DNA from: Candidatus Kaiserbacteria bacterium
GTDB lineage: Bacteria > Patescibacteriota > Minisyncoccia > Phycocordibacterales > UBA2100
Assembly: GCA_016217935.1 (NCBI GenBank)
Contig: JACRFJ010000001.1
Span: 1-24,000 of the forward strand
Reading direction: 5' to 3'
DNA: 24,000 nucleotides
Within the stretch, counting starts at the first letter, position 1; each line of letters starts with the position of its first letter. The position numbers and the translations under genes were made by a program. This document shows positions 8,891-24,000 of this stretch, piece after piece. Below the pieces are notes generated by a model that had not been told where the DNA came from, searched no databases, and worked only from the letters and a program-made list of their open reading frames with translations.

Positions 8891-8941
8891 TTATCGGCGC
8901 TTCTTTTTCTTTGCCTTCTTGGCCTTCTTTTTCTTTGCCAT
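8891..8941 (-). CDS. Candidate 16-aa Lys/Arg-rich micropeptide MAKKKKAKKAKKKKRR
   Basis: ATG 8941-8939, TAA 8893-8891. A dedicated hairpin plus U-tract terminator follows directly. No SD is present, but most genes here lack one. It is too short for any statistical coding support. Confidence 0.3.
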   Translation of the reverse strand: MAKKKKAKKAKKKKRR

Positions 8942-9180
8942 AGTTTTATGAGTCTTGTTTGTATTAAACTCGACCTCGCTTCGCGCGCGAAACGCTACAG
9001 CGTTTTATTCATTATTGCACTCAAGCGTCGATACATTATGTAATGCACGCGTATGTGTGGATAACTTTCGTTGCACCAAAAAATATTTTTTATATGAAAA
9101 TATATTCACGGAATATTTTACTGTTCTTCCCTCAAAACTTTAACATCAAAATGCAATGCGTCTTATTTGCAATGTGGATG

Positions 9181-9434: not shown

Positions 9435-9452
9435 CCCGAGCGAAGCGTAAGC

Positions 9453-11714
9453 TCATTGAACCTGCGCGCTTCCTGATCGAATTTGACCAATCAGTTCGTC
9501 AGCCTGCGTCTTCACCTCAGGGTGTGCACGCTTCGCAGCTTCGAGCGCTTCTATCGCACGCGCCTTGTCACCTGATTGATAGTAGAGCGCTGCGAGGGTG
9601 AAGTACGGCTGCACATCTTGCGGATTCGTCGCAACGAGCGCTTGCCAGATTTTTGCTACTTTGTCGTAGCGTTTCCTGTCGATGTACGCTGCAAGAGTTC
9701 TCGGGTCTGCCGCTTCTCCCGTTGCAATATACGGTTCAAGCAATGCATCTGATTTTGTAAAATCGCCCGCACGAATCAAAACCGCTGCATAGTATATTGT
9801 CGGTTCCAAGAATTGCGGAGCAAGTTCATGCGCTTCTTTAAACGCATTCAATGCGCTGGCGAGATCACCGCGCCGCAGCGCGTTTTGGCCTATCTCAAAG
9901 AATATTCGCTGCTTCCGGGGAGAAAGCTTTAACGCTTGAGTAAAGGCGTCGTTTGCAGCAGCATTGTTTCCATACGCTTCGTACACGACACCGAGAAAGA
10001 GCGGGAATCGTGCGTCGAGCGGAGAAGCCTTCGCTTGGAGTTGCAGCTCGCTCGTTGCTACGTCATAGAATTGCTGCTTTGTGGTATTGGGAATCGAAAG
10101 TGATGCTGCTTGCGTGGCGGCTTGTGCGAGTTGTTCGCGCGCCTCTTGCGAACCATAGGTGCCATAGCTGATCGATCTTTTAAACGCCGCGAGCGTTTTC
10201 GACGCATCTCCCTGTGTGTTGAGAGCGGCGATAATTGCGCGATTGGCAACAAGCGCTTGCGCGTTCACTGTCCATGCAACACCCCACAAGAGTATTGCCG
10301 CCCCAACAGTTATGTATGGCAGAGCACTCACTGGAAACAAGAACCTCTCGCCGAAAAGTATCGACGCTTTCGAATGCTTCGACGTACGGAATATTACGTA
10401 CCCGAGTATCGTGCCGAAAAGTATATAGCTCGTGACGTTGTCGAACACAAAGAAATTGTGGCAGAAGTAGGCGGCAAGCAAGCCGGTGAGTAGAGACCGT
10501 TCGGGAATGGAGAAGGCGTGAACTTCGTTTACAGAACGGTGCCACAGGAGCCAGAGCGTCGCAAGAAAAATTGAGAGATAGGAGAGGAGACCAAGGAATC
10601 CGCCGGCCACAAGCCAATCAAATACGATATTGTGAACGCGATCAAACCACGGCTCCTGCGCATACATGCGTGGATCGTAGTACTTGTCGAAAACGATCGC
10701 GTAGTTTTCTTGCCCCCAGCCAAGAATGGGGCGCTCCTTGACCCCCTCCCATGCGATCGACCAGTTGATGAATCGAGCCTTGACCGTCGGGTCCGAGGTT
10801 GAGATTGTCGCAAGTCGCTCGAGGAATCCAATTTTCTTGACCCACGCTTGGTCGCGTGCCGTCCAAAATGCTCCTGCGAGAAATACGATCACAACAACAG
10901 TTGCAAATGCAAATCGCCATACCACGCGTGAGTTTCTCGCGAGAATCACGAGAATCAGCGCAGAGAGTAGGGCGCCACCGAAGAGTCCGATCATAGTTCC
11001 TCGAGTGCCGGTAAAGAGGAGCGCGAGCGTATCGATTACAATGATTGATCCGTATGCAAGCGAGGGAGCGAGCCGCGAGCCGCGAGCACGTTCCATCCAC
11101 GACTGTGACCACATGATCGCAGCGATAAAAATGTGGAAGAGCATGTATGCCGCAAGGTAGATCGGATTGCCGAAGGTTGCATCGATGCGCGCCGAGAGGC
11201 CCGCGGCACCACCTTGCCCGAGCGTAGAGAGCCCGACCACCTGAAGAAAACCGTAGAGCGCAAGATATACAGAGACACCGAGTGAAACCCAGAGGAGCCA
11301 CCGCCACAGTTTCTCGGTATTCATCATCGATGCTGCGATGACCACGTATACAAACAGGTGTGCGAGCGTCACCCATCCGTCCATGCGCTCATAGTTACTC
11401 CAGAAACTTTTCATTGGGTACGCACCAAATAAATCGGCGAGCGCGATAACGAAAAGGAAGACTGCGAGCGCGAGGAGTGCCCACGAGCGTCGAGGCCGGT
11501 AATCGGACCGCACGAATGAAAGGGCGAGATACGCAGCTGTAATGATCTCGACGATAAGACGGAACGCAAAGTTCTTTCCTGTTATAAAGGGAAAAAAGAG
11601 AGATTCTGATACAAATATTGCAACAAACGGGAGAAGAAAAATGCCGCCAAGCACTACGTACCGTAGAGTCTTTTCAAGCACCATGGGAACTATGCTAGCA
11701 CTGGTCGTTGTCAC
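9453..11714 (-). CDS. Polytopic Wzy_C (O-antigen ligase/polymerase-like) membrane protein with C-terminal TPR repeats
   Basis: 753 aa with about 12 hydrophobic spans. Wzy_C-type loop motif FDRVHNIVFDWLVAGGFLGLL. The C-terminal roughly 230 aa form repeated TPR-like helices (AAANDAFTQALKLSPR, ASALNAFKEAHELAPQ, DKARAIEALEAAKRAHPE). The track start at 11714 is GTG; ATG at 11684 (MVLEKTL) is an alternative. Confidence 0.85.
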   Translation of the reverse strand: MTTTSASIVPMVLEKTLRYVVLGGIFLLPFVAIFVSESLFFPFITGKNFAFRLIVEIITAAYLALSFVRSDYRPRRSWALLALAVFLFVIALADLFGAYPMKSFWSNYERMDGWVTLAHLFVYVVIAASMMNTEKLWRWLLWVSLGVSVYLALYGFLQVVGLSTLGQGGAAGLSARIDATFGNPIYLAAYMLFHIFIAAIMWSQSWMERARGSRLAPSLAYGSIIVIDTLALLFTGTRGTMIGLFGGALLSALILVILARNSRVVWRFAFATVVVIVFLAGAFWTARDQAWVKKIGFLERLATISTSDPTVKARFINWSIAWEGVKERPILGWGQENYAIVFDKYYDPRMYAQEPWFDRVHNIVFDWLVAGGFLGLLSYLSIFLATLWLLWHRSVNEVHAFSIPERSLLTGLLAAYFCHNFFVFDNVTSYILFGTILGYVIFRTSKHSKASILFGERFLFPVSALPYITVGAAILLWGVAWTVNAQALVANRAIIAALNTQGDASKTLAAFKRSISYGTYGSQEAREQLAQAATQAASLSIPNTTKQQFYDVATSELQLQAKASPLDARFPLFLGVVYEAYGNNAAANDAFTQALKLSPRKQRIFFEIGQNALRRGDLASALNAFKEAHELAPQFLEPTIYYAAVLIRAGDFTKSDALLEPYIATGEAADPRTLAAYIDRKRYDKVAKIWQALVATNPQDVQPYFTLAALYYQSGDKARAIEALEAAKRAHPEVKTQADELIGQIRSGSAQVQ

Positions 11715-11724
11715 GCGCTAGAGC

Positions 11725-13284
11725 CTATTTTCGACTTTCGTGGTACTCATCTTCGGTATTCACCGCCCACATATTCTCTTTATCGTTCCTGCCTGCAATG
11801 ATGTTGTCGACGGCCGTCATGGCAGCGAGCATCGAGTGATCTTGATTGTTGTATCGATGCATCCCATTTCTCCCAACCGGATATAGATTCTCAAACCGAT
11901 CCAGGTATCCACGTATTTCGGCGAATCGATTGTATGTGCCGAAATATCCGGGATACGCTTTTGGCTGTCGTATGACAGTACCGTCGATCACTTCTTCCGA
12001 TGATCCGAGCCGAATCTGCTCGATCTCGCGCCTGGCGAGCTCGACGAGCTCTCTATCCGACATGTTCCAAAGCGAATCTCCTTCATTGCAGAAATATTCC
12101 ATACCGATCCAGCCACGTCCCTCCTCTGCAACAAGCAGCGGGTTCCAGTTGTGAAAGAACTGCACACGCCCCACGTGCACGCCTGGTTCATGCACATAAA
12201 TCCACGTGTCGGTGATCGACTCTCCACCTCGTTCGCGTGGCTCTGACTTCAGCAAAAGACCGACGGTAAGAAAATCCCGATATTCAAGTCCGTCGACGAC
12301 TGTGCGCACGGTTTCTGGAAGTTTCGGCTGCATCATACGTGCGAGCGATCGAATATCAGTGGTTGAAAACACAAAATCCGGCTGCCACGATCGCTCCCCT
12401 CCACCTCCGCGTGCATGCACATTCGTGATCTGCCTGTCGGTATGGTCGACACCAATGACATCAATCCCCATATGTATCTCACCACCGAGTTCGCGCACTT
12501 TCTGAGCGACAACTTCCCACATCTGTCCAGGACCGTATGCAGGATATAAAAACTGCTCAATGAGCGAGGTCTCGACTCCTTTACCTGCAAGCGGGCCGGA
12601 GCGTAGTACTTTACGTGCCGCATGCTGCAGAGCTTTTATGATCGAGAGGCCCTTCACGCGTTGCGCTCCCCATTCGGCGCTGAGCTCCGTGCACGGTACA
12701 CCCCACACTTTTTCTGTATACGATTTGAAGAATGTTTTGTAGAGCTCAGTGCCAAACCGGTTGATGAAAAAGTCTTCGAGAGTTTTCTCCGGCCTGATCG
12801 GGAAGAGCGCAGCGTAGAGGTACGTAAAACCGATCTTCACCACTTTCCACATTCCGAGTTTACGGAGCGTGTCGAGGGAGAGCTCGACCGGATATGCGAA
12901 AAATTGTCCCCCGTATAGAATCCGTGTCTTACGAGGACGTACCTGCATCACGTTGTTGCCGTCGCGATCAGTTGCGCGTGGAAGTCCCTCCGTGAGCGCA
13001 CGCACGGTGCACTGATACGTGATTTCGACATTCTCTCCTTCAGGAATTTGTACTGGCAAGATATTCCCCCACCACCGCATGACACGATCCGATTTGGAGA
13101 AAAATCTATGTCCACCGATATCGATGCGGTTCCCCTTGTAGCGAACTGTGCGTGAAATACCGCCGACGTATTCAGGATCGCGCTCGAGCACGATCGGCTT
13201 GATCTCAGTTCGCATGAGCAATTCGTATGCAGCAGTGAGCCCGGCGGGGCCCGCACCGATGATAAGAGCGATCTTTTGCGACAT
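11725..13284 (-). CDS. FAD/NAD(P)-binding flavoprotein, UDP-galactopyranose-mutase-like / amine-oxidase superfamily
   Basis: 519 aa. N-terminal Rossmann motif [18 protein letters not shown]...[39 protein letters not shown] and the C-terminal [27 protein letters not shown] resemble my recollection of eukaryote-type UGM (FKVWAVP...; [29 protein letters not shown]). Confidence 0.8.
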
Positions 13285-13292
13285 GGTAGCGC

Positions 13293-13298
13293 ATCATA
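13293..13298 (-). promoter_or_regulatory. -10-like hexamer TATGAT 8 nt upstream of the ATG at 13284 (possible leaderless or short-leader transcript)
   Basis: Minus strand reads TTCTTTTTTTAATGCACGATGCTATGATgcgctaccATG. It lies directly after a strong terminator, so this gene needs its own promoter. No SD is present. Confidence 0.3.
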
Positions 13299-13308
13299 GC
13301 ATCGTGCA

Positions 13309-13344
13309 TTAAAAAAAGAACGGTCCCGTTTCATGGCGGGACCG
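13309..13344 (-). terminator. Strong intrinsic terminator overlapping the stop codon of the 13331..13978 gene
   Basis: Minus strand reads CGGTCCCG-CCATGAAA-CGGGACCG (8-bp perfect GC-rich stem, 13321-13344; the TGA stop is in the loop), followed by TTCTTTTTTTAAT. Confidence 0.75.
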
Positions 13345-13978
13345 CAGCTCGGGGATGCTGGACGAGCGAAATAAGTGGTACGCGATCTGCTGCTTCTTCT
13401 CGTAGCGTGCGCTCGACGCGGTTCTTGTCGAACGGGTTGCCGATGAGCGGAAATGTTGTGATTCCGAGCGGATCGATTGTCGCGAGTCCAAGGGCAAGAA
13501 ATTGCTTCATCCGCTCAGCAAATGCGACTGGCGCGTCAACCGGAACGAATCTGCATCTGATACCGAGCGCATAACAGATGAGCTGAAGGCGCGGCATCCA
13601 TTCACGCACCACGATCACGTCGAGCTCATAGCCTCCGTTGCAGCAACGGAGATACTCGCGAATGAGAATTGCTTCCTCCACGAGATCGCGTGGCGGCATG
13701 TAATTGAGCAACTTCGGCTCGTCACGCGGAAGAACGAGGGCATTCTCCTCTCGATCGACTTCGCAGAGCCGGTTGTACATGACGATGCCGATCGTGATCT
13801 CGCAGGGCATGCCGCGTTGATCCCAGCCTCCGACGAAGATGAGTCGATCGTAGTGTGGAACTCGGTCGATCACCGCCACACATATCGCCTTGGCGAGCGG
13901 TCCCAATTCAGCGCGTTGCGCTGTGAAATTCCAACGCATCGGGTACCCCAGTACCGCAAGAGCCCTTTTCTGAGCCAT
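13331..13978 (-). CDS. Hypothetical protein, possibly DUF218/YdcF-like
   Basis: 215/216 aa. A perfect SD GAGGAGG (13990-13984) lies 5 nt before the second ATG (13978). It shows weak layout similarity to DUF218 (RLIFVGGW..., EEAILIREYL, DVIVVREWMPRLQLI). Hand-counted GC on sampled lines is about 53-62 percent, somewhat above the neighbours. Confidence 0.65.
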   Translation of the reverse strand: MAQKRALAVLGYPMRWNFTAQRAELGPLAKAICVAVIDRVPHYDRLIFVGGWDQRGMPCEITIGIVMYNRLCEVDREENALVLPRDEPKLLNYMPPRDLVEEAILIREYLRCCNGGYELDVIVVREWMPRLQLICYALGIRCRFVPVDAPVAFAERMKQFLALGLATIDPLGITTFPLIGNPFDKNRVERTLREEAADRVPLISLVQHPRAAVPP

Positions 13979-14033
13979 CATCGCCTCCTCTGTGGTCCGG
14001 CGACACTATGCGCGAGCTTTCAGGCAAGGTCAA

Positions 14034-14477
14034 CTATGCAAATAGAAGAAATTTTCGTGCAAAGAAATTCCAAGAGAAAACGACGACGACACTCGCGAGT
14101 TTTGAAACGAGGTAATAAAAACCAAAGAGCGACGTGAAGAGCCAGAGCATGATTTCGTTGATACCGAGACCGATAGCACCGATAAGACAAAAGATGAGAA
14201 ATTCAGCCGAGGGACTTCTCACCGCACGATGCTCGAATACCCAGATTATACTCAGAACGTATACCGAGGTTAGGCCCACCAGAAACGAAATCGCGCCAGA
14301 GATGAGATATGGAACGTTGAATACACTCGTGAGCAGCCACAAAAGTCCCGTATCGAGGATGAGCGCAGCCCCCGAAGCGACGAAGTAGCGGATGAACTCA
14401 TGGAAGGTGTTCGAACCGAGAGCCTCGACAGAGGGCGTTGTTGCAGCTTCAGGTGAGGTGACGATGTCGGCGCTCAT
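14034..14477 (-). CDS. GtrA-family membrane protein (polyprenyl-phosphate-sugar translocation family)
   Basis: The track ORF 14034..14705 is trimmed to ATG 14477 (MSADIVTSPE...). Four hydrophobic helices with GtrA-like FIRYFVASGAALILDTGLLWLL ... VVVFSWNFFARKFLLF. It overlaps the upstream gene end (14449) by 29 nt. The start is uncertain (alternative ATG at 14498). Confidence 0.8.
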   Translation of the reverse strand: MSADIVTSPEAATTPSVEALGSNTFHEFIRYFVASGAALILDTGLLWLLTSVFNVPYLISGAISFLVGLTSVYVLSIIWVFEHRAVRSPSAEFLIFCLIGAIGLGINEIMLWLFTSLFGFYYLVSKLASVVVVFSWNFFARKFLLFA

Positions 14478-15918
14478 ATATGTACGAGAGCGTAGCATGT
14501 GCGCCGAGGGCAGCAAGGATAAGGAGGTACGGCTCCGAGGGAATGCGGTAGCGCGCGATCGATACAGGACCGGTGAGAGCCGCAAAATATGCAATGAGAA
14601 GGGCAAACAGTACCACGCGATAATCACGCCGCCCCCTCCACGTCGCCACAAGTGCAAAGAAAACCATAAGTGTCCAAAAGCCCATCTCAAGCCCAAGTGG
14701 TGCAACTACTTTGATTGCCCTCGTTGCCTCTCTCCAATCACCCGCACCAAGCTGCTTCAACGCATCAATGAGAACAAGCGCGGTAGGTGCGAAATACCCC
14801 TTGTTGTCGCGGACCTGCACAACCACCTGCTCGTATGCTGCGACCGAACTCCCAAGGAAATATGGCACCGTATTCACCGCGTGAAAGTATGCATAACGGA
14901 GGGGATCTTGCATGATGAGTTGCGCCGCGAGTTTACCCTCATAATTTTGAATGTCTTCTCCTTTGGGAGTCATCTCGTTCAGCTCTATCCAAATCTCAGA
15001 TGAGACTTTCTTGTATGCGGGATCTTCGCGATATCGGCTCGCGAGAATCGCGGGCACCGACCGATCTGTGTCCATTTCTTTCCACGCAAGAAAATCACGT
15101 GCATTGTAGTAGAGCAGATTCGATGCACCGACATGCGCGATTTCATAGGATCCGAATTTATGGTGATACCAGTAGAGCCAGGGTGCGAGGACGAAGATTG
15201 CGACGACAACGTACATGGCCACCGGAAGAGCATACTGTTTGAAATTGAATCGGAAATGTTTGAACTCAGCTGCAATAATCGCGAAAGCAATCATCGGCAC
15301 AAGGAATTGCGCAATCGGGCGAATCAAGGTGAGGAGACCAAGCGTGAGCCCGACCATGCCCCACCTGAGAAAACTACGTCTTGTTTCATAAAAGAGAGCG
15401 ACATAGATGACGATGACGAGAAGTGACGCGAATAATCCGTCTGAGAGAATCGTCGTATTCGCAAGCACAACGTTCGGATCAACCCCGAAGAGAAGTGCGG
15501 GGAGCGCCGACCAAACAGAGTTCAAGAACCTCCGCGTCATCGCATAGATGAGCGCAACGGCAACGAGTGCGAGCGCGATCTGGATGAGAACTACGAGCAC
15601 AAAGCTCGCGTGCTGATTCCCCATCGCAATTTTTCCCACAATAGCGAGGAAAAAAGAGTACCCCGGCGCCCAGTGTCTTTCTGGCTCACCTTGATTTCGC
15701 TCAAACGTGTGCCGCATGAGGAGCGAGTTCGCAAGCGTGGCGTACGTCTCTGAATCTCCTTTGAGGAGCGGGTACTGCGCTGCCTCTCGATTATTCGATG
15801 CGAGATGTGCTACGTACCCGTAGGACCCAATATGTGCGAGCAAAACAATCGCGAGGACTGCGACAAGATATGGACGTGCGGTAACGAATGAACGAATATT
15901 CACATTATTATGCGACAT
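14449..15918 (-). CDS. GT-C fold glycosyltransferase, family 39 / ArnT-PMT-like (polyprenyl-phosphate-sugar dependent)
   Basis: About 489 aa from ATG 15918 (MSHNNVNIRSF). It is polytopic, with a first-loop acidic motif LLKGDSETYATLANSLL (DExY-like) and many TM spans typical of PMT_2/ArnT. The ATG is embedded in the last codons of neuB (ATGTCGCATAA, 11-nt overlap). The track start 15972 would overlap neuB by 65 nt. Confidence 0.85.
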   Translation of the reverse strand: MSHNNVNIRSFVTARPYLVAVLAIVLLAHIGSYGYVAHLASNNREAAQYPLLKGDSETYATLANSLLMRHTFERNQGEPERHWAPGYSFFLAIVGKIAMGNQHASFVLVVLIQIALALVAVALIYAMTRRFLNSVWSALPALLFGVDPNVVLANTTILSDGLFASLLVIVIYVALFYETRRSFLRWGMVGLTLGLLTLIRPIAQFLVPMIAFAIIAAEFKHFRFNFKQYALPVAMYVVVAIFVLAPWLYWYHHKFGSYEIAHVGASNLLYYNARDFLAWKEMDTDRSVPAILASRYREDPAYKKVSSEIWIELNEMTPKGEDIQNYEGKLAAQLIMQDPLRYAYFHAVNTVPYFLGSSVAAYEQVVVQVRDNKGYFAPTALVLIDALKQLGAGDWREATRAIKVVAPLGLEMGFWTLMVFFALVATWRGRRDYRVVLFALLIAYFAALTGPVSIARYRIPSEPYLLILAALGAHATLSYIYERRHRHLT

Positions 15919-16933
15919 CGGTTTCGAGAATGAGTTCGTCTTCACCAATGTCTCGCACGGCACGTTTACCAACGATCACGCCGATCTTCTCAGGGCCGAG
16001 TCCCGTTCCCGGACGCTTGAGTGCAAGCATGGCCCTCGTAATGGTGTCGCCTTTTTTAATATCGCTATCAGCCATAATGCTCTGTCGTGCCCACTCTCGC
16101 GCCTTATCGAGACTATCCGCGCGCGCGTCAAATGAATCCTTGATCGAAGCCTCGATATCGCGCATTTGCTGCACCATAAGAATGAGTTCTTCCGGTGTGG
16201 TTGAGACAGGGCAATCAAAGGATCGCTCGTCTGTCTTATCAAATGATTGATGCTTCTCGATGAGAGCCGCCCCGAGTGCAACCGCGGCAAGTGGGATGTG
16301 CCAGCCGACCGTGTGATCAGAATAGCCAATGGGGTAGTCGAACATCTTTTTGTAACGAGCGATCATCGGAAGATCGTTCTTTTCTGGCTCAGTTGGATAC
16401 ACCGTATTACAGTGCAGTATGACGATCTCTGTGCAGCCACCGCGCTCCAGCGCCTTCACTGAGGCACGCATCTCTTCTTCTGTCTTATGGAGACCAAACG
16501 ATGCAATCACGGGCTTGCCGCGTGAACCGATATTTTCCAGAAATTCGAGGTTGAGCGACTCTCCTGAACCGATCTTGAAAAATGGAACGTTGAGTTTCTT
16601 GTCGAGAAACTCGAGGTCAACTTCGGTATGTGCTGTGATGAAGCATTCTATCCCCTTCGACCGAGCATACTCATACAGCTCGGTAAGTTCATCGTGTGAG
16701 AGCTCTTTGTATTTCAAACGATCGTACCAATATGGAGATACTTTTCTTGATACAAGTGCTTCGGTCGTCTGTGCCTGGAACTTGACCGCATCGCATTTCG
16801 CTTCGACTGCAGCGTCGACCTGCTTTTTCGCAAGCTCGAGCTGCCCCCAATTCGTAAGCCCTCCTTCAGAGACGATATACACAGGCTCACCGTCACCGAC
16901 GAGTCGACCATTGATTGAGATTTTCTTCGACAT
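15908..16933 (-). CDS. neuB: N-acetylneuraminate (nonulosonic acid) synthase, NeuB family, with C-terminal SAF domain
   Basis: 341 aa: VYIVSEGGLTNWGQLELAKKQVDAAVEAKCDAVKFQ, PFFKIGSGE, ILHCNTVYPT, GYSDHTVG, and the SAF-like tail GDTITRAMLALKRPGTGL. Confidence 0.9.
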   Translation of the reverse strand: MSKKISINGRLVGDGEPVYIVSEGGLTNWGQLELAKKQVDAAVEAKCDAVKFQAQTTEALVSRKVSPYWYDRLKYKELSHDELTELYEYARSKGIECFITAHTEVDLEFLDKKLNVPFFKIGSGESLNLEFLENIGSRGKPVIASFGLHKTEEEMRASVKALERGGCTEIVILHCNTVYPTEPEKNDLPMIARYKKMFDYPIGYSDHTVGWHIPLAAVALGAALIEKHQSFDKTDERSFDCPVSTTPEELILMVQQMRDIEASIKDSFDARADSLDKAREWARQSIMADSDIKKGDTITRAMLALKRPGTGLGPEKIGVIVGKRAVRDIGEDELILETDVA

Positions 16934-16986
16934 GCGGAAAGCGTATCAATTTCGAATCAAAATGCTACCCGAAGCAGACCGTATAA

Positions 16987-18147
16987 TTATGTCTTTTTCT
17001 TCTCCCAGACGACGCGCGGCATGATGATCTCGTCTTCGATATTGTCTTTGTGCTCAATGATCTTCGCCATCATGCTCTCGACGAGCACTTCGGAGAGTTT
17101 GTGCGGTTTGAGCCCAAGTTTGAGGAGCTCTTTGTGTACGGGCTTATAGTAGTGATCTTCGGCTTCTTTGCGTGGATTCTTGACATGCTTCACTTTCGCA
17201 TCGATTCCCATTTTTTTCGCCGCGTCGCGTACGATCTCCGCGAGCTCGTTGACGGAGAAGACTTCGGTGAATTGATTGAAAACGCGGAACTCCCCTTTCT
17301 TTGCAGGATTCTGCGTCGCGAGTTCGACACATCGCAGTGTGTCAACGATGTTGAGAAATCCGCGCTTTTGACCCCCTTTGCCATATGGCGTAATCGGCAG
17401 TCCAGCAACTGCCTGCACACAAAATCGATTCAGTGCAGTGCCAAAGATGTCGTCGTAGTGGAAGCTCGTTTGTAGTCCGGGCGCCATCTGTGTCTCTTCT
17501 GTCTCGATTCCGTAAACCACACCCTGGTTGAGATCGGTGACTCGCAGATTCCAGATACGGCATGCAAATTCGAGGTTCGCACTGTCGTGGACTTTGGAGA
17601 GATGGTAGAAGGATCCCGGTTTTTTCGGGAACAAGAGTCGGTCTTTCCTCCCTTTGTGTCTGATCGTAATCCATCCCTCCTCGATATCGATATTTGGCGT
17701 GCCGTATTCTCCCATCGTACCGAGCTTGATGAGGTGTGCGTTCGGAGAGGAGCGCTTCATCGAGAAAATCACATTCAGATTGCCGACAACGTTGTTGACC
17801 TGCGTCTCGACAGCACGCTCGTTACCGATCATCGAAAACGGCGCAGAGGGTTGCTCGCCGTAATGAATAATTGCGTCCGGTTTGAAATTTTCGAAGACGC
17901 GTGCGACAAATCGCTCGTGCACCAAATCTCCTACGAACATCTGGATTTTCTTTCCTGTGAGGCGCTTCCAAATGCGAATACGCTCCTGGAGCGACGGAAG
18001 TGGGATCAAAGGTGACGCGTCGACCTCGGCCTCCCATTTGCGCTTGTTGAAATTATCGACCACAGCCACTTCGTGACCTTTGCGAGAAAAATACATCGCC
18101 GTTGGCCAGCCGAGATATCCATCACCACCGAGAATGAGTACGCGCAT
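16987..18147 (-). CDS. sqdB: UDP-sulfoquinovose synthase (SQD1/SqdB/Agl3 family SDR)
   Basis: 386 aa, collinear with plant SQD1 as I recall it. Shared motifs: ILGGDGYLGWPTA, HYGEQPSAPFSM, KLGTMGEYGTPNIDIEEG, SFYHLSKVHDS (T..YHxxK catalytic set), TDLNQGVVYG, FGTALNRFCVQA, YGKGGQKRGFL, GEFRVFNQFTEVFSVNELA, EDHYY. Confidence 0.92.
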   Translation of the reverse strand: MRVLILGGDGYLGWPTAMYFSRKGHEVAVVDNFNKRKWEAEVDASPLIPLPSLQERIRIWKRLTGKKIQMFVGDLVHERFVARVFENFKPDAIIHYGEQPSAPFSMIGNERAVETQVNNVVGNLNVIFSMKRSSPNAHLIKLGTMGEYGTPNIDIEEGWITIRHKGRKDRLLFPKKPGSFYHLSKVHDSANLEFACRIWNLRVTDLNQGVVYGIETEETQMAPGLQTSFHYDDIFGTALNRFCVQAVAGLPITPYGKGGQKRGFLNIVDTLRCVELATQNPAKKGEFRVFNQFTEVFSVNELAEIVRDAAKKMGIDAKVKHVKNPRKEAEDHYYKPVHKELLKLGLKPHKLSEVLVESMMAKIIEHKDNIEDEIIMPRVVWEKKKT

Positions 18148-18148
18148 A

Positions 18149-18284
18149 CCCGGCTAGTACAATTTCGAATAATTACTGCCGCGATTCTTTCGTCTCGCCG
18201 TACAGAATATTGCTAAAAGCTGCGAATCAATCATACGAGGTCAAATGGTCATACGCCAAGGCAATTCGAAATTGTACTGCCGGG
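18149..18284. mobile_element. MITE-like 136-bp element: 22/21-nt terminal inverted repeats flanked by CATA direct repeats, inserted at the sqdB start codon
   Basis: Left arm CCCGGCTAGTACAATTTCGAAT (18149-18170). Right arm ATTCGAAATTGTACTGCCGGG (18264-18284). They are reverse complements apart from a 1-nt indel. CATA sits at 18145-18148 and again at 18285-18288. The left CATA contains the sqdB ATG (CAT on plus, 18145-18147). No transposase is present. Confidence 0.4.
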
Positions 18285-18326
18285 CATAGCGAGAGAACAC
18301 TATCAAAAAGGGAGGCAATTGCAATC

Positions 18327-19007
18327 CTACACCATCGTATGTAATCCGCACTCTTTGTTGGCATTACTCGCTCCCGCGAATCGTCCCGCGCGCTCGAATT
18401 TTCCCTGGCGGCCACCTCCACTTTGTCGCGCGCCTTGCGTGGTACACGGCTCACAGCCGAGCGATGCATAGCCTTTCTCGTAGAGCGGATGATACTCAAG
18501 ATTGTTTTCCTTTATGTAATTCCATACATCGTCGTGCGTCCAAAACGCAATCGGATTGATTTTTGCAATTTTACCTCGTTCGACAATCGGCGTATTCTTG
18601 CGAAATTCTGTTTCATCACGACGAAGACCCGTCACCCATGCATCATATTCAGCAAGGACATTATTGATTGCAGGGATTTTCATCTCGCAGCACTTGTACT
18701 GATCATCCTTGATGAACGCGTCGCCATAGTATTCCTCTATGCGCGCAATGTCGTTGGATGTCGGGCGAAGCCATCGGAAATTGAGTCCGCGACTTGCCAC
18801 CAACCTGTCTGCAAAATTGAGTGTTTCCTTGAATTCATACCCCGTATCGATTCCACAAATCTCTATATCCGGCTTCACCTGCACCGCGAGGTCAACAAGG
18901 ACGCGTGAATCCTTGCCGAACGAGCACGAGACGAACATCCGGGGATACTGCGCGAGCGCGAGCGCGATAATTGTTTTCGAGATGTCCGCTTTTTCTTGAA
19001 TCGTCAT
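18327..19007 (-). CDS. cysH: Sulfonucleotide (APS/PAPS) reductase, CysH family, Fe-S (APS-reductase) type
   Basis: 226 aa: SFGKDS (PP-loop variant), DTGYEFKET, WVTGLRRDE, INPIAFWTHDDVW, the Cys pair KCCEMK plus GCEPCT (the CC...CxxC cluster ligands typical of APS reductases), and the C-terminal catalytic KECGLH. Confidence 0.85.
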   Translation of the reverse strand: MTIQEKADISKTIIALALAQYPRMFVSCSFGKDSRVLVDLAVQVKPDIEICGIDTGYEFKETLNFADRLVASRGLNFRWLRPTSNDIARIEEYYGDAFIKDDQYKCCEMKIPAINNVLAEYDAWVTGLRRDETEFRKNTPIVERGKIAKINPIAFWTHDDVWNYIKENNLEYHPLYEKGYASLGCEPCTTQGARQSGGGRQGKFERAGRFAGASNANKECGLHTMV

Positions 19008-19089: not shown

Positions 19090-20022
19090 TTATTTTTTAA
19101 TCGACGCAAGGTATCGCACTGTCTTTTTAATCCCCTCATTGATCGAAAACTTCGGCTGCCACCTGAGCTCCTTCCGAGCTTTTGCGTTTGAGAGGTGGCT
19201 GCGCATGATTTCCCCACGAATTTTGGGCGCATGCTTCACGATCGCTTTTTTGCCCGCATGCTTCTCGATAGTCCGTATCATCTCATTCACGCTCGTTTCT
19301 TTCGATCCGCTCACGTTGACTACGAGATAATCCTTCTTTGCACGCTTGAGTGCGAGCACATTGGCATACGCGAGGTCCTCGACGTATACGAAATCGCGTG
19401 TTTGCGTGCCATCGCCGTTGATCGTAATCGGTTTGCCCGCAAGCACATTCTGAATGAAGACAGTCACTGCACCGACGTGTTTTTTGCGTTCGTTGCGGGG
19501 ACCATACACATTACTATAGCGAAGTATCACCACGGGAAGTGCATGCACTTTGTGGTAGTAGTAGAGGTATCGCTCGCCTGCCAGCTTCCCGATACCATAT
19601 GGAGAGATCGGTTGCGTCGGCGCATTTTCTTTGACAGGAACACTCTCAGGATCGCCGTAGAGTGCGCCACCCGTTGACGAGAATATAAATTTCTTGATTT
19701 TGTATTTCTTTGTACACACTTCAAGAAGATGCACGAGACCCACGATATTGCTCTCGATATCTGCGAATGGATCGGTGAGCGACTCACGCATGTTGGTTTT
19801 TGCAGCCAAGTGACAGACAGCTTCAATCTTTTCCTTCTTGAATATGGTTTCAAGTTTTGGATCAGAGAGTGACATCCGATATACCTTCACGCCGGTGCGC
19901 ACATTCTTTTCGTGCCCCGATGAGACGTTGTCGAGTACGACGACTTTGTGACCTTCTCGCAAGAGCGCGTCAACAACATGTGAGCCAATAAAACCAGCTC
20001 CTCCTGTGACGAGAACTTTCAT
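19090..20022 (-). CDS. NAD-dependent epimerase/dehydratase family SDR (UDP-glucose 4-epimerase-like)
   Basis: 310 aa: MKVLVTGGAGFIGSHVVDALL (GxxGxxG), FSSTGGALYG, SPYGIGKLAGE (YxxxK), LRYSNVYGPR, RDFVYVEDL. Substrate cannot be assigned from sequence alone. Confidence 0.85.
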   Translation of the reverse strand: MKVLVTGGAGFIGSHVVDALLREGHKVVVLDNVSSGHEKNVRTGVKVYRMSLSDPKLETIFKKEKIEAVCHLAAKTNMRESLTDPFADIESNIVGLVHLLEVCTKKYKIKKFIFSSTGGALYGDPESVPVKENAPTQPISPYGIGKLAGERYLYYYHKVHALPVVILRYSNVYGPRNERKKHVGAVTVFIQNVLAGKPITINGDGTQTRDFVYVEDLAYANVLALKRAKKDYLVVNVSGSKETSVNEMIRTIEKHAGKKAIVKHAPKIRGEIMRSHLSNAKARKELRWQPKFSINEGIKKTVRYLASIKK

Positions 20023-20120: not shown

Positions 20121-21269
20121 TTAGAATGTTATTTTCTTTTTGAGTAATGGGGTTCCAAGTTCTGTTGTCTTCAACACGCGCGCGATTTTTACTCCCGCAT
20201 TTCCCTTTCCGAATACGGAATGATTCTTGATGTACCTCTTGAACGCGGGCGAGGTCGCGCGCCTGATAGCCGCAAGAATCTTCTGAACGGTCGGTTTCTG
20301 GATTGCGATCACGTTTGTATCGCGAATTCTCCCATCCTGTCGTCGACCAACCGTGATGGCGGGGAGGTTGAAGTACGGCGTTTCCATGAGTCCGCTCGAG
20401 GAATTGCCAATCATAAAAGACGCCCCTGCCATGAGCCCCCAGAAGTCCTGCGCTTCGATGTTTTTATGCACACTAAACTGAGGCACGTGTTTGAATTCGC
20501 CGAGCGCCTTCAGCACAAGCGAGTACCCCTGATCGCTGCACGGCCATACGACAATCGATCGGATGCTCGCGCGCTTCAGAGCTTCATAGACTGTTTTTGC
20601 CTCTTGGTAGGAATTCGCTTCTTCGAGAGTCGACGGGTGTTGAATGCAGATCGCGTACGACTCATTCGCCCGGATGCCATATTTTCTTCGAGCAACACTA
20701 TTTCGCGTGTACTTCTTTTTCACGATGAGATCGATGTAGGTCGATCCGAAATCAAATACACGCCTCTTCTCTTCGCCGAGCCTCAAAATGCGTTTGTATG
20801 AATCTTTGCTCGATGGGAAGTGCAGGTGTGACAGCTTGGTGATCGCGTGAATACGTACACCATCACGATTGCCTGCAACATCGCCACCGAGGATATGCGC
20901 GACGGGGATATTGAGTTCGAGCGCTGCATTTGCTGCTGCTAAAACTTCGCCACGATCTCCGATCGTGACCAAAACGTCTGGTTTTATTTTTGAAAGCAGC
21001 GCGGTCATACCGCTCATCGTGCGTGCAAGGGTATGAGCGCGCTCGATACTCGAATCTCCTTTTTGGCCAGTCGGCACTTTATGAATTCTCTTGAACCATT
21101 TTTGCACTTCCTTCACCGTCTCTCCGAAAAAAGGATTCAGGTGCATGTCGGTCGTAATGAGCTCGAGCCGCATGCTTGGATCGCGCTCGATTGCTTGACA
21201 GAGGGTAATGAGTGCACCAAAGCCGCCGCGCTTTCCGGTGAGTACTGCAATCGTCCGCTTTTTATTCAT
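20121..21269 (-). CDS. neuC: UDP-N-acetylglucosamine 2-epimerase (hydrolysing), NeuC family
   Basis: Contains IAVLTGKRGGFGAL, ELITTDMHLNPFFGETVKEV, PDVLVTIGDRGEVLAAANAALELNIPVAHILGGDV, IHAITKLSHLHFPSS, LGEEKRRVF and GNSSSGLMETP. The start is placed at ATG 21269 (MNKKRTIAV); the track start 21308 adds a basic 13-aa extension. Confidence 0.88.
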   Translation of the reverse strand: MNKKRTIAVLTGKRGGFGALITLCQAIERDPSMRLELITTDMHLNPFFGETVKEVQKWFKRIHKVPTGQKGDSSIERAHTLARTMSGMTALLSKIKPDVLVTIGDRGEVLAAANAALELNIPVAHILGGDVAGNRDGVRIHAITKLSHLHFPSSKDSYKRILRLGEEKRRVFDFGSTYIDLIVKKKYTRNSVARRKYGIRANESYAICIQHPSTLEEANSYQEAKTVYEALKRASIRSIVVWPCSDQGYSLVLKALGEFKHVPQFSVHKNIEAQDFWGLMAGASFMIGNSSSGLMETPYFNLPAITVGRRQDGRIRDTNVIAIQKPTVQKILAAIRRATSPAFKRYIKNHSVFGKGNAGVKIARVLKTTELGTPLLKKKITF

Positions 21270-21353: not shown

Positions 21354-21971
21354 TCATCCGCCGAGGAATCTCTCGACATTTTGCTTGTCTCGCTCAATGC
21401 ACGCGGCACCCTCTGCCTTGAGCTTCTGGAACACAGGATTTTCCTCTGCCCGAGCCCAGAGCTCGCGCACGAGGTCGTGATCACCTCCGATCCGCATGTG
21501 GATGCGGACCTGGTGGATCATGCAATTCATGCCGACGCGCTGCGCCCGCTCCTTGGTGAACTTGTCCACCGCATGCTCTGCGATCTCCTCTGCATCCCGC
21601 AGAGTCTGCGTGGAGAGCGTGAGGGCGCTCTCGAACATCTCGATTTCCGGCAGGATCAAGCCGGAGATGTTCATATCCGCGTGGAGCATTCCCAACGGAT
21701 CACGCGCCAGTTCGGCTGAATCGCGGGACTGATACGCCAGCTCCATCGAACGATCGAGTAGTTCGCGCGGCCGATCCAGGTGATCCTGCCACTGACGAAA
21801 CCCTGCCATGTGGAGCTCGTAGTAGACGCGGCTCCGGACTTGATGCCCATGCGGCGTCTGGTCGGCGTGAACGCGTGCAAGCAGCTCATCTGCAAGCCTC
21901 TGCATACCGCGATACTCTCTGTCGCGGCGACTCAATTCGATCGCACGCAGGTCGACATCATATGCAGCCAT
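21354..21971 (-). CDS. Orphan hypothetical protein (predicted all-helical), higher-GC insert between neuA and neuC
   Basis: 205 aa from ATG 21971 (MAAYDVDLRAIEL...). A perfect SD GGAGGAG (21984-21978) lies 6 nt upstream. The track start 22007 is a TTG without an SD. Hand GC counts on nine 60-nt lines are 57-63 percent, versus about 43-55 percent in neuA and neuC. I recognise no motif. Confidence 0.7.
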   Translation of the reverse strand: MAAYDVDLRAIELSRRDREYRGMQRLADELLARVHADQTPHGHQVRSRVYYELHMAGFRQWQDHLDRPRELLDRSMELAYQSRDSAELARDPLGMLHADMNISGLILPEIEMFESALTLSTQTLRDAEEIAEHAVDKFTKERAQRVGMNCMIHQVRIHMRIGGDHDLVRELWARAEENPVFQKLKAEGAACIERDKQNVERFLGG

Positions 21972-22031: not shown

Positions 22032-22742
22032 CTATCGGCTCTGTCGCTGCATGAGTATTGCCTCGATGCGCTCAAGGTCTTCTTTGAAATCGATATCCGA
22101 TGAATAGATCTCGGGGAGGATCACCGGATAGTTCTTCCTTCCTTCGAGCTTTCCCTCTTTGATCACCGTGTCATAGCTCGAGAGCCAGAGGTTTGCGGCA
22201 TGATAAAACTTTGGCCGATCGTTGCTCACGCAATTGTAGTGCAGATCGTGGTGCCAAAACTTGATTGAGCCATCGGCTAAGATCTCGCGCACATTGTAAG
22301 GATGATTGATCGTATCGACTTCTGAGACAGTGACCACCGAATCCGCATTTTTCTCATAGGCAAGTTGTATCGCCGTATCAATCTGTTCTGGTTCGATAAT
22401 CGGTGTCGACGGTTGAAGCAGTACAGCATAATCCGCGTGATAGCCTTCCTTTTTCTCGAGCTCCCGAAGCGTGTATGTGATCGTCTCGACTACTTTCGAT
22501 GTCTCGGTCGCAAGTTCTGCAGGACGAGAAAAAGGAAATTCTGCGCCATATTCTTGCGCGACTTTTGCGATACGCTCGTCGTCTGTCGAAACGATGATGC
22601 GGTCAACGAGCTTCGCTTTTTTCGCCGCGATAATCGGATGCGCGACAAGTGGAATGCCGAGGAGTGGGTGAGTGTTCTTTCCTGGGAATCGCTTGCTCCC
22701 TCCGCGAGCTGGTACGACCACGATCGTCTTTTTCTCGCTCAT
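22032..22742 (-). CDS. neuA: Acylneuraminate cytidylyltransferase (CMP-nonulosonate synthetase), NeuA family
   Basis: 236 aa: IVVVPARGGSKRFPGKNTHPLLGIPLV, IIVSTDDERIA, LLQPSTP. Its ATG overlaps the upstream gene stop (ATGA at 22742-22739). Confidence 0.9.
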   Translation of the reverse strand: MSEKKTIVVVPARGGSKRFPGKNTHPLLGIPLVAHPIIAAKKAKLVDRIIVSTDDERIAKVAQEYGAEFPFSRPAELATETSKVVETITYTLRELEKKEGYHADYAVLLQPSTPIIEPEQIDTAIQLAYEKNADSVVTVSEVDTINHPYNVREILADGSIKFWHHDLHYNCVSNDRPKFYHAANLWLSSYDTVIKEGKLEGRKNYPVILPEIYSSDIDFKEDLERIEAILMQRQSR

Positions 22743-24000
22743 ACTGAGAGTATCTCACGAAGTTTCTCGGCAATCCTTCTCGCAGATTTGCCGTCCGTGT
22801 ACACGACCTCTTCGCGCACGACCCTCTCTCGCCCCGCTTTATCGAGAGACGAATTCTCGCGATAGGCACGTAGGCCAGCCATGATCTCGTCGACTGTTCT
22901 CGCGATTTTCATACCGCCCGATTGTGTCATCGGCGAAAAGTGATTCGTGTGGTAATAGCGCTCACTTGAGAGATAGAAAGGTTTTTGTTTTTTGCCGTCA
23001 CTCGCAATGCCGATCATAGGCCTGTCGAGCAGCGCAACCTCGATGCCGATCGTGGATGCCATGTGGAGCACGACGTCGGCATGCTGGATGGAATTGAGCA
23101 AAAACTTCAGATCTTCTGGCTCAAACTCCCATCCGCCAGAAGTATCATGTACTTTCTTGTGCGATTCGGCGATCACAATCTTCTGAGAGTCTTTCGCTAC
23201 ATCGACGCACCACCCGTAATTGGGATGCGGACGATACACGAGCTTCACGTGCTTAAACGAATCATCACGCATCATTCGCTCATGGAGCATCGCGAGTACG
23301 TCGCACTCATCGGGAAAGAGGTCGAGTCCACCGCCCGTAAAAAGAATGTAACGCTCCTCATGAGGTACATTGATTGTGTGCAACCACTCATCGCGCGGCA
23401 TGATGAGCGATGAATTGAAGTAAAAATCAAATTGCGGAATGCCGACAATCGAGAGTCGATCTTCGCGCATGTCGCTGTATGTTATCGATTCGGCGCGTGT
23501 AATTTGATTTTGCACGAGCATATAATCCGGCTTTATCGGCGTAAAGCATTTCGAGGTAATGCTATCCCATGATTTGGGCATACCGACAATTCTCACTCCG
23601 CGTTTGCGAGCCGCTTTCATGAGTCCCAAATCCATACGATCAAAGAGAGTTGTCGCAAATATGAGATCCGGTTTGTGCTGATCAATGATTGGAAGGTACG
23701 CGGCGTATGGAGTCAGCGTGTAGAGCAGGCGTAAAAACTCGCGCCATATACGCATATGCCCGAGGAGCCATAAGATGCGAGTGGAAACAAACCACAGCCA
23801 CCGCACGAGGCCAGACTTCGAGTAAAAGGCATGCATCTGGCGGTTATAAATCGTGGTCGAAGGGATGCTCTGCCGCAAAAACTGATGCGCTATCCCCTCG
23901 AATCGCTTGTACCGATCATACGGGGCAGACTCAACAACAATTTCGCTCCTCCCGACAAATTCCTTCGCATAGTACGCATGTTTGAAGGGCGGTACAAGAA
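22739..24000 (-). CDS. GT-B-fold transferase-like protein (TagF / capsule / sialyltransferase-like, HP motif), 5'-partial
   Basis: The frame stays open upstream of the track's TTG start (23878) to the window edge (...LVPPFKHAYYAKEFVGRSEIVVESAPYDRYKRFEGIAHQFLRQS...). C-terminal half: ILFTGGG, KLVYRPHPNY, ADVVLHMASTIGIEVALLDRPMIGI. The function call is tentative. Confidence 0.7.
   Translation of the reverse strand, partial: LVPPFKHAYYAKEFVGRSEIVVESAPYDRYKRFEGIAHQFLRQSIPSTTIYNRQMHAFYSKSGLVRWLWFVSTRILWLLGHMRIWREFLRLLYTLTPYAAYLPIIDQHKPDLIFATTLFDRMDLGLMKAARKRGVRIVGMPKSWDSITSKCFTPIKPDYMLVQNQITRAESITYSDMREDRLSIVGIPQFDFYFNSSLIMPRDEWLHTINVPHEERYILFTGGGLDLFPDECDVLAMLHERMMRDDSFKHVKLVYRPHPNYGWCVDVAKDSQKIVIAESHKKVHDTSGGWEFEPEDLKFLLNSIQHADVVLHMASTIGIEVALLDRPMIGIASDGKKQKPFYLSSERYYHTNHFSPMTQSGGMKIARTVDEIMAGLRAYRENSSLDKAGRERVVREEVVYTDGKSARRIAEKLREILSV

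Follow-up and report, generated by a model that had tools for sequence, protein, structure and literature searches.

In plant plastids, adenosine 5'-phosphosulfate (APS) reductase forms the sulfite that is taken up by SQD1, the genes for the two enzymes being unlinked and the product going to a thylakoid lipid. In the bacterial sqd operons, namely sqdB-sqdX and the sqdB-sqdD-sqdC of Rhodobacter and Sinorhizobium, a SqdB homologous to SQD1 is encoded together with a lipid glycosyltransferase, and in Sulfolobus acidocaldarius Agl3 provides sulfoquinovose for a protein-linked N-glycan and not for a lipid. Here we describe a cysH-sqdB gene pair from a Candidatus Kaiserbacteria bacterium, a non-photosynthetic member of the Candidate Phyla Radiation (CPR). 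The stretch of DNA that was analysed, hereafter the window, comprises 24,000 nucleotides (positions 1 to 24,000 of contig JACRFJ010000001.1, assembly GCA_016217935.1), and the pair lies within a cluster of genes for a predicted surface glycan, in the midst of genes for nonulosonic (sialic-acid-type) sugars, the neu genes.

The window has in common with the plant route its two chemical steps and both enzyme families, and the reductase domain of the plant enzyme is homologous to the window's CysH (TIGR00424 match). It differs from that route in that the two genes are adjacent and stand in a surface-glycan cluster, in that CysH lacks the fused thioredoxin-like domain of the plant reductase, and in that the window's SqdB has Pro and Glu where SQD1 has Arg101 and Asp40. 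A SqdB of the Aerococcus type, whose gene is followed by that of a GT4 glycosyltransferase, is 55% identical to it, yet the bacterial sqd operons have kept Arg101 and Asp40, whereas the window has cysH upstream of sqdB and neuB downstream. Agl3 shares the fingerprint [ST]MG...Yx3K with the window's SqdB but is archaeal and retains Arg101, unlike its bacterial, Pro-bearing counterpart; to our knowledge the Agl3 locus contains neither cysH nor neu genes.

Assimilatory Fe-S APS reductases (Mycobacterium tuberculosis 7lhr, Pseudomonas aeruginosa 2goy, Bacillus subtilis CysH) have the fold, the Fe-S cysteines and the ECGLH motif of the window's CysH. Its nearest relatives outside the CPR, at 65-67% identity, are found in sir-cysH operons (L103, L161), while in the CPR loci the SqdB-like partner replaces sulfite reductase and the sulfite would go to a sugar C-S bond rather than to sulfide. 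Pathways for legionaminic (Leg) and pseudaminic (Pse) acid proceed from a LegB/PseB dehydratase through a LegG/NeuC-type epimerase and a LegI/PseI NeuB-type synthase to a cytidine monophosphate (CMP) transferase. Their layout is parallel to that of the window, with a 4-keto-5,6-ene-forming short-chain dehydrogenase/reductase (SDR) beside a NeuC-type epimerase, a NeuB-type synthase and a CMP-transferase; however, their SDR is a 4,6-dehydratase and that of the window is of the sulfite-adding SQD1 type, in a module lacking aminotransferase and acetyltransferase.

We consider it probable, at roughly 0.72, that a dedicated sulfur branch has been built into a CPR cell-surface glycan cluster, with CysH furnishing sulfite from which the SqdB-like enzyme makes a sulfosugar. 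Together with thioredoxin, CysH would convert APS to free sulfite, as expected of its family. The SqdB-like SDR, judging by its conserved catalytic residues, would oxidise a uridine diphosphate (UDP)-hexose at C4 and eliminate water to yield a 4-keto-5,6-ene, and then, by the SQD1/Agl3 mechanism, would add sulfite at C6 and reduce C4 back. The product would be UDP-sulfoquinovose or a close UDP-6-deoxy-6-sulfo analogue, which the surrounding NeuC, NeuB and CMP-transferase, the TagF-like transferases, the GT-C and GtrA proteins, the Wzy_C ligase-like protein and an ABC exporter would use. The outcome would be a glycan or glycoprotein bearing both a C-sulfonate and a nonulosonic acid, and not membrane sulfoquinovosyl diacylglycerol (SQDG). 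The GT-C and GtrA genes directly downstream could provide a lipid-phosphate-carrier route for a separate sulfoquinovose residue; in a relative with 86% identity (L002), genes for a GT2, a GT2-GtrA fusion and a PMT_2 protein lie directly beside cysH-sqdB. Placement of cysH beside sqdB would make sense because the rest of sulfate assimilation is lacking in these organisms and free sulfite is reactive.

The metabolism of CPR bacteria (Patescibacteria) is stripped-down. The enzymes encoded here are of known kinds, and what appears to be new is the wiring of sulfate activation and reduction to a sulfosugar synthase in a nonulosonate cluster; the locus points to a putative, undescribed sulfonated cell-surface glycan in the CPR. 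A full-text literature search found no paper joining sqdB with cysH, sulfoquinovose with nonulosonic acids or the CPR, or Patescibacteria with nonulosonic acids. In a CPR survey, cysH/aprA genes were recorded in ~5% of genomes and taken as sulfur reduction (PMC11608272). Our results indicate that CPR cysH would feed a sulfonated surface sugar rather than sulfur cycling, which would change how such genes are scored in metagenomes. They also point to strongly anionic surfaces, carrying sulfonate and nonulosonate, on episymbiotic cells, with a bearing on the chemistry of host attachment.

CysH and its linkage to sqdB

The window's CysH (226 aa) scores 154.8 bits with PF01507 (PAPS_reduct) and is above the cutoffs of NF002537 (195.8 against 154) and TIGR00434 (167.4 against 165.1), and its closest solved structure is the M. 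tuberculosis Fe-S APS reductase 7lhr (E=3e-34). The PP-loop motif SxGxDS is present as SFGKDS (residues 29-34), cysteines C105-C106 and C184xxC187 align to the CC and CxxC of 7lhr, and the catalytic tail KECGLH occupies residues 218-223. A preliminary description, made from the sequence of the window, had placed a CysH-family reductase with this tail and with CC...CxxC cysteines upstream of sqdB, and all of these features are present. The five Fe-S and catalytic cysteines are retained in 53 of 54 members of the CysH clade, the exception being gapped at the catalytic Cys. With its 65-67% identity to CysH proteins encoded beside sulfite reductase in non-CPR bacteria, the protein does not belong with the non-assimilatory PAPS-reductase-like families, and is predicted to be a bona fide assimilatory-type, sulfite-forming reductase. 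The four Fe-S cysteines CC...CxxC separate APS reductases from 3'-phosphoadenosine 5'-phosphosulfate (PAPS) reductases, and we infer that the likely substrate is APS rather than PAPS.

SqdB was used to scan one genome per species (GTDB) and CysH to scan Joint Genome Institute (JGI) metagenomes. Homologues of the window's genes were placed in the flanks by tblastn, from which the linkage statistics were drawn because clustering of the loci by longest open reading frame (ORF), which was tried and dropped, miscalls antisense ORFs in high-GC actinomycete loci. The preliminary description had named absence of the sqdB-cysH linkage from all related genomes as a finding that would speak against a shared function; sqdB was linked in 20 of the 29 informative CysH relatives (at least 58% identity and enough downstream sequence), lying directly downstream of cysH in 18 with a gap of 5-177 bp, and further linked loci were L155, L156 and L160. 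The plain cysH-sqdB order occurs in the window and in L002-5, L013, L014, L016 and L160. The nine unlinked relatives are of two kinds: those of a soil lineage, with a CysH 65% identical to that of the window encoded after a NIR_SIR sulfite reductase, and a cysH-cysD-cysN fragment cut off by the contig edge.

Sulfite reductase was seen only beside CysH relatives not linked to sqdB (13 loci and the Acidobacteriota locus L161), and none was found within ±10 kb of the sqdB-linked loci. Among the best 120 CysH homologues the single non-CPR name is an Acidobacteriota protein, from a contig (L161) that carries sulfite reductase, sirohaem synthesis genes and CysH. In the CysH clade the sulfite-reductase-linked sequences nest within the sqdB-linked ones. 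Because the cysteines are kept, the two groups are nested in this way and sulfite reductase is absent from the linked loci, CysH is best described as presumably an ordinary sulfite-forming reductase, found in either of two contexts that exclude one another. Within the genomes scanned, only CPR or CPR-like loci (L005, L007, L013, L014, L016) had cysH near sqdB, with no instance in a non-CPR locus. Known sqd operons had been said to lack cysH, and none of 30 sqdB loci of the type that keeps Arg101 (Arg type, see below), the canonical sqdB-GT4 pair included, has cysH within 6 kb.

Other sulfur genes accompany the pair in several relatives. L007 (Falkowbacteria) and the 1.03-Mb CPR contig L155 share the order neuC - methyltransferase - CMP-transferase - cysH - cysD - cysN - sqdB - neuB. 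The CysD of these relatives scores 442 bits (cutoff 396.6) and the CysN 494 bits (cutoff 336), and CysN is without an APS-kinase domain. In L156 (Magasanikbacteria), where a complete Leg-like module adjoins the SqdB module, the order is neuC - SDR - sqdB - neuB - cysD - CysN::CysH fusion - CMP-transferase. The fusion protein (655 aa, 13170-15137) is 52-58% identical to CPR CysH proteins over residues 440-654, and represents a putative Rosetta-stone link from sulfate activation to APS reduction. In L160 (Uhrbacteria), a cysH-sqdB-methyltransferase-TauE run includes a TauE/SafE-family anion permease gene at 11005-11751; members of this family carry annotation as sulfite or sulfonate exporters.

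At least four arrangements therefore tie sulfate activation or reduction to sqdB in the CPR (cysH-sqdB; cysH-cysD-cysN-sqdB; sqdB-neuB-cysD-fusion; cysH-sqdB-methyltransferase-TauE), and the convergence of several independent gene orders and a gene fusion on sqdB is strong gene-context evidence for a metabolic link. An APS substrate for CysH also fits because no cysC lies between cysDN and cysH in L007, L155 or L156. The proposal made earlier, that CysH gives SqdB a private sulfite supply, is strongly supported by the recurrent linkage, by cysDN and the fusion in relatives and by the lack of sulfite reductase in linked loci.

In L155 the run continues (12219-17731) with genes for a sulfotransferase and an APS kinase, for a pyruvate-kinase/PUA/ATP-sulfurylase/APS-kinase fusion and for a CysQ-like phosphatase. 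This tail is a putatively complete PAPS branch for O-sulfation, so that the L155 glycan is probably both C-sulfonated and O-sulfated. Among the non-CPR loci of the set, sulfur-activation genes are near sqdB in L079 alone (15313-18817), where an actinomycete Arg-type sqdB has cysD, cysN, cysC and a cysQ-like gene 4-8 kb downstream.

The Pro101 SqdB-like clade and nonulosonic-acid genes

The window's SqdB (386 aa) aligns over residues 2-383 to residues 3-384 of Arabidopsis SQD1 (PDB 1qrr, phmmer, E=3e-152), with 56% identity (MAFFT), so that its earlier naming as an SQD1/SqdB homologue with the T...YHLSK set and long identical blocks is borne out end to end. The identical blocks are KLGTMGEYGTPNIDIEEG, SFYHLSKVHDS, TDLNQGVVYG and FGTALNRFCVQA. 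The extended-SDR motif GxxGxxG reads GGDGYLG, GTMGEYG and FYHLSK are also present, and residues T145, M146, E148, Y149, Y182, H183 and K186 are kept, in line with the SQD1/Agl3 fingerprint noted above (PMC8987622). With the NF041015 equivalog model (cutoff 575) the window's SqdB scores 489.8, validated SQD1 484.7 and the canonical sqdB-GT4 gene product 467.2. The cutoff was rejected as a membership test, being too narrow to inform because validated SQD1 also falls under it.

The residue corresponding to Arg101 of SQD1 and Agl3 is Pro in the window's SqdB (HYGEQPSAPF), and that corresponding to Asp40 is Glu. In an alignment of 101 homologues, the window's SqdB and 58 others (59/101) have Pro at SQD1 position 101, within the motif H-x-x-E-Q-[R/P]-S-A-P. 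Only columns 101 and 40 (Asp in the Arg type versus Glu or His) fully discriminate the two types, and the active-site motifs of the Pro type are otherwise the same as those of the Arg type. Every validated UDP-glucose-using synthase (SQD1, Agl3, Sinorhizobium meliloti SqdB) has Arg101 and Asp40. A primer sequence for Agl3 reads AEQRSAP, and the R101A variant of Agl3 is inactive (PMC4388408). In a neighbour-joining tree the Arg type forms one clade, which includes the Aerococcus gene followed by GT4 (canonical sqdB-sqdX), and the Pro type makes up the remainder; among the best 120 database homologues of the window's SqdB, 118 are of the Pro type. The idea that the Pro101 type is merely proteobacterial SqdB was rejected, as S. 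meliloti SqdB, 38.5% identical to the window's protein (tblastn), has Arg101. We take the position aligned to SQD1 101 to be that of Lys84 in Escherichia coli GalE and Gly102 in the UDP-N-acetylglucosamine epimerase WbpP, in the wall of the sugar box near C2.

Neighbouring genes were compared between the types at loci flanked on each side by 2.5 kb or more, a neuB, neuC or CMP-transferase gene within 5 kb being counted as linkage. Such genes lie near sqdB in 28 of 40 Pro-type loci versus 0 of 30 Arg-type loci (Fisher p=2.5e-10, kinship ignored), and in 13 of the 40 informative Pro-type loci neuB is directly downstream. Outside the CPR, neu-linked Pro-type genes are found in Hyphomicrobiales, Gaiellaceae, Rhodocyclaceae, Gallionellaceae, Hydrogenophilales, several Alphaproteobacteria and two SAR11 single-cell genomes. 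The Gallionellaceae locus L022 has the order ABC exporter - B12 radical-SAM - methyltransferase - TagF/epimerase-like protein - neuC - CMP-transferase - sqdB - neuB - methyltransferase, and the SAR11 locus L030 (8480-13873) the order GT2 - SDR - Pro101 sqdB - neuB - methyltransferase - CMP-transferase; in both, sqdB and neuB overlap by 13 nt. In the SAR11 (Pelagibacteraceae) loci L030 and L040 the run is part of a longer stretch in which there are two further CMP-transferase genes, one PseG-like gene and another neuB. Minimal cassettes consist of neuC-CMP-transferase-sqdB-neuB (L022, at 7923-12180, L023, L010) or sqdB-CMP-transferase-neuB (L041).

The NeuB proteins encoded beside sqdB form a clade of their own, apart from the second NeuB copies of the same loci. 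This clade has an invariant His at Neisseria meningitidis F112, an invariant Trp at F288 and a conserved Lys or Arg at 84 and 86. These residues are absent from N. meningitidis NeuB, Campylobacter jejuni PseI and nearly every paralog, the clade residue being shared in any one column by one outgroup sequence at most. Where Pro-type genes lie apart from neu genes, they adjoin genes for enzymes of UDP-N-acetylglucosamine (UDP-GlcNAc): a TviB-like 6-dehydrogenase and a WbpM/PseB-like dehydratase, or a PgaC-like synthase and a PgaB-like deacetylase. A second Pro-type subgroup, with the motif GEIPSAP, occurs in actinomycetes and Chloroflexota. In L036/L038 (5907-13371), of this subgroup, sqdB is flanked by a processive GT2 gene resembling PgaC and a polysaccharide deacetylase gene resembling PgaB, which suggests a sulfonated GlcNAc-type exopolymer.

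The Pro101 clade and its association with neu genes across phyla also appear to be new. The clade is distinct and very large; its members at present bear the annotation "NAD-dependent epimerase" or "UDP-sulfoquinovose synthase", and in bacteria abundant in the environment, SAR11 among them, they are tied to sialic-acid-type genes. Their study could bring to light a new class of environmental organosulfonate.

Weighing the reading of the cysH-sqdB pair

Several observations weigh against a private sulfite supply for a sulfosugar. Canonical SqdB activity cannot be assumed on the present sequence evidence because Arg101, essential in Agl3, is Pro in the window; the SQD1/SqdB homologue named at the outset keeps its catalytic set, while the changes at Arg101 and Asp40 had been overlooked. 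CysH is under the cutoff of the APS-reductase model TIGR02055 (164.8 against 235.3). ATP sulfurylase (sat/cysDN), a sulfate transporter and thioredoxin are absent from the window and from the 8.7 kb by which Logan contig L158 extends it past its high-coordinate end, so that the APS source called for earlier is encoded beside sqdB in relatives (L007, L155, L156) but not on the window's contig as covered. No demonstrable UDP-sulfoquinovose-using transferase was identified. The genes cysH and sqdB are co-directional, yet the 179-bp gap between them leaves unproven the co-transcription implied by the earlier phrase "same operon". A promoter and terminator scan of 13-24 kb gave counts not above those of shuffled sequence, and by simple scan the spacer contains neither a terminator nor a convincing promoter, the match at 18259-18230 not being above shuffles. 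The CPR loci L006, L031 and L041 have a Pro-type sqdB with no cysH within 10 kb, and in the Microgenomates locus L159 (7293-9848) a cysH (58% identity) lies in a Pse/Leg-like nonulosonate cluster with no sqdB within 8 kb. There it stands between a CMP-transferase gene and that of a 369-aa protein without a family match, and either that genome has sqdB at another place or clusters of this kind put sulfite to some further use. The 369-aa protein was considered as a divergent SqdB and rejected (BLASTP E=4).

Because the Pro101 clade, with its own NeuB, is embedded in neu gene sets, its SqdB-like enzyme may serve the synthesis of a sulfonated nonulosonic acid and not of plain sulfoquinovose. The enzyme would then take the first step of nonulosonate synthesis, in the place of the 4,6-dehydratase of the legionaminic and pseudaminic routes. 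It would sulfonate C6 of UDP-GlcNAc (or UDP-glucose), with sulfite still coming from CysH. NeuC would release and 2-epimerise the sugar, and NeuB with phosphoenolpyruvate would give a 9-deoxy-9-sulfo nonulosonic acid for CMP-activation and TagF-like transfer. The neu linkage confined to the Pro type, the directly downstream and at times overlapping neuB, the minimal four-gene cassettes and the dedicated NeuB clade are what this model would predict. The clade's His112 and Trp288 and its basic residues (Lys/Arg) at 84 and 86 would be in keeping with an additional anionic group, the core module has no conserved Leloir transferase, Arg101 and Asp40 are lost only in the Pro clade, and the non-neu contexts are those of UDP-GlcNAc enzymes.

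We nevertheless hold this model to be possible but rather doubtful. It lacks biochemical precedent for either a C-sulfonated nonulosonic acid or a UDP-GlcNAc-using SqdB; NeuC, NeuB and CMP-transferase suffice for an ordinary sialic acid; only two columns split the types, the sugar pocket being otherwise unchanged; and the GT-C/GtrA (and GT2) genes beside sqdB in the window and L002 are an ordinary route for a separate sulfoquinovose. A GlcNAc substrate would moreover be required because NeuC chemistry fails on a 2-hydroxy sugar. With the same reserve we put forward a new pathway via UDP-6-deoxy-6-sulfo-hexosamine, served by Pro101 SqdB and a co-evolving NeuB and extending from the CPR to Gallionellaceae, Rhodocyclaceae, Gaiellaceae and SAR11. 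If it existed, CPR bacteria would have bolted cysH, cysDN, the CysN::CysH fusion and TauE onto the module for want of another sulfite source.

That the SqdB-like enzyme, having lost Arg101, acts as no more than a UDP-hexose 5,6- or 4,6-dehydratase for deoxy-sugar or nonulosonate synthesis, with CysH serving elsewhere, is very unlikely. Agl3 does yield UDP-glucose-5,6-ene without sulfite (PMC4388408, PMC8987622), and non-CPR carriers of the gene have no sulfur genes nearby; those carriers, however, can take sulfite from a normal cys regulon. Minimal-genome CPR bacteria have repeatedly put cysH, cysDN, a CysN::CysH fusion and a TauE permease against sqdB, and because this placement is hard to explain otherwise the enzyme presumably consumes sulfite. 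Slightly less credible still is that CysH serves cysteine synthesis and stands near sqdB by chance or through shared regulation, in keeping with its assimilatory type, its kinship to sulfite-reductase-operon CysH and the reading of cysH as sulfate-to-sulfite reduction in the CPR survey (PMC11608272). No sqdB-linked locus has sulfite reductase within ±10 kb, the linkage is repeated across several independent gene orders and one fusion, cysH is placed between neuC and sqdB inside the glycan cluster, and outside the CPR cysH is never near this sqdB-neuB module. The homology to SQD1/SqdB could also suggest UDP-sulfoquinovose for membrane SQDG, as in phototrophs, rhizobia and some Firmicutes, which we regard as the least probable of all. 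No GT4 (sqdX) or GT8 (sqdD) gene was found next to Pro-type sqdB in the window, in L158 or within ±10 kb of the CPR loci, whereas Arg-type loci do have a transferase (Aerococcus L050, sqdB-GT4; S. meliloti L157, sqdB then a glycosyl transferase). Every neighbour in the window is a glycan-assembly gene, and the surface glycan proposed from the outset in preference to an SQDG-type lipid would accord with these contexts.

Organisation of the window and its surroundings

Genes of the window were named by Pfam and NCBIfam profile scores and by PDB sequence matches (Table 1). The minus strand carries every substantial gene from 3606 to the window end, and the glycan region is not set apart in base composition from the housekeeping genes. 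The profile matches agree with the earlier placing of both genes between neuB and neuC and next to GT-C, GtrA and Wzy_C genes.

Table 1. Coordinates and assignments of features in and around the cysH-sqdB pair
Feature	Position	Strand	Basis
TagF-like (Glyphos_transf) transferase, likely CMP-nonulosonate transferase	22739..24000	-	PF04464, NF046086 (BFO_1060 family)
CMP-nonulosonate cytidylyltransferase, NeuA/PseF-like	22032..22742	-	PF02348 99 bits; TIGR03584 PseF 145.2 bits, below cutoff 205.7
Hypothetical soluble helical protein, 205 aa as called	21354..21971	-	No Pfam/NCBIfam match
NeuC-type hydrolysing UDP-GlcNAc 2-epimerase	20121..21269	-	TIGR03568 336 bits, above cutoff 235.9; PF02350 217 bits
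Short GalE-type UDP-hexose 4-epimerase (SDR)	19090..20022	-	TIGR01179 galE 224.6 bits, below cutoff 262.3
CysH, predicted thioredoxin-dependent Fe-S-type APS reductase, proposed sulfite source	18327..19007	-	PF01507, NF002537, 7lhr, motifs
cysH-sqdB spacer, 179 bp	18148..18326	-	Weak -35/-10-like match at 18259-18230
SqdB-like, putatively sulfite-adding SDR, Pro101 clade	16987..18147	-	1qrr full-length match, catalytic motifs
NeuB-family nonulosonate synthase, SqdB-associated clade	15908..16933	-	PF03102 207.5 bits and SAF domain
GT-C glycosyltransferase PMT_2, uses lipid-phosphate-linked sugar donors	14449..15918	-	PF13231 41.3 bits
GtrA-like small membrane protein, 147 aa, flippase-type partner of GT-C systems	14034..14477	-	PF04138 72 bits
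Hypothetical 215-aa protein	13331..13978	-	No family match
FAD-dependent amine-oxidase-like oxidoreductase, 519 aa	11725..13284	-	PF01593, PF13450
Wzy_C (O-antigen-ligase-like) membrane protein with C-terminal TPR repeats	9453..11714	-	PF04932 76 bits, TPR families

The nonulosonate gene set is complete in the window, with a NeuB-family synthase, a CMP-transferase and a hydrolysing 2-epimerase (PF03102, PF02348, TIGR03568), and the equivalog models give no assignment to N-acetylneuraminic acid (Neu5Ac), Leg or Pse. NeuB misses both the NeuB equivalog (263.5, cutoff 399.65) and PseI (201.5, cutoff 340.25), and its PDB matches to PseI and NeuB are about equally distant. For the GalE-type SDR the top PDB match is the UDP-glucose 4-epimerase 4zrm (E=4e-74), and a PDB sequence search with the GT-C protein gave no relative. 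The GtrA and PMT_2 GT-C genes lie directly downstream of neuB, while, of the three components of a Gtr-type glycosylation set (GT2, GtrA, GT-C), the only candidate for GT2 is a generic 226-aa enzyme encoded ~11 kb upstream on the contig and outside the window. The TagF-like gene is cut by the window end; its full length is 455 aa in the contig sequence (L001/L158), where a second TagF-like copy follows in tandem just past that end.

An ABC exporter gene is also within the 8.7-kb extension, just outside the window. Upstream on the same contig (L158, 1-5513) are amidotransferase and cyclase genes of the HisH/HisF kind, of a type found with acetamidino-modified nonulosonates, as well as genes for a methyltransferase, a GT2 and a formyltransferase and another neuB. 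The cluster reaches at least 8.7 kb beyond the window, and from this content the Kaiserbacteria organism probably makes two different nonulosonic acids.

On the other side, a terminator-like hairpin at 13345-13320 (minus strand), at the stop codon of the 215-aa gene, consists of 9 base pairs (7 GC) with a T-rich tail; no other site in the cluster is convincingly terminator-like, and the transcription unit may have its 3' end here. The FAD amine-oxidase-like gene is kept in the cluster, with a 33-aa remnant at the equivalent place in L002-L004. A Wzy_C gene with TPR repeats adjoins the module in L002, L013, L014 and L031 as well, and in the order of the window it is followed by the housekeeping genes for SecA and GatB. 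Rfam and tRNA scans of the window gave nothing, and no tandem repeats were found at positions 1-3700. A stop-free frame of 1091 codons (3-3275, minus strand) is open at the window start, and Arg-rich ORFs at 215-2161 are spurious, being overprints of this gene. The N-terminus of the frame repeats a motif of ~45 aa, F.G..Y.S...A......DY...L.R.G......G..WYV, which is found twice in the neighbouring 314-aa HTH_17-like protein (3606-4550, minus strand).

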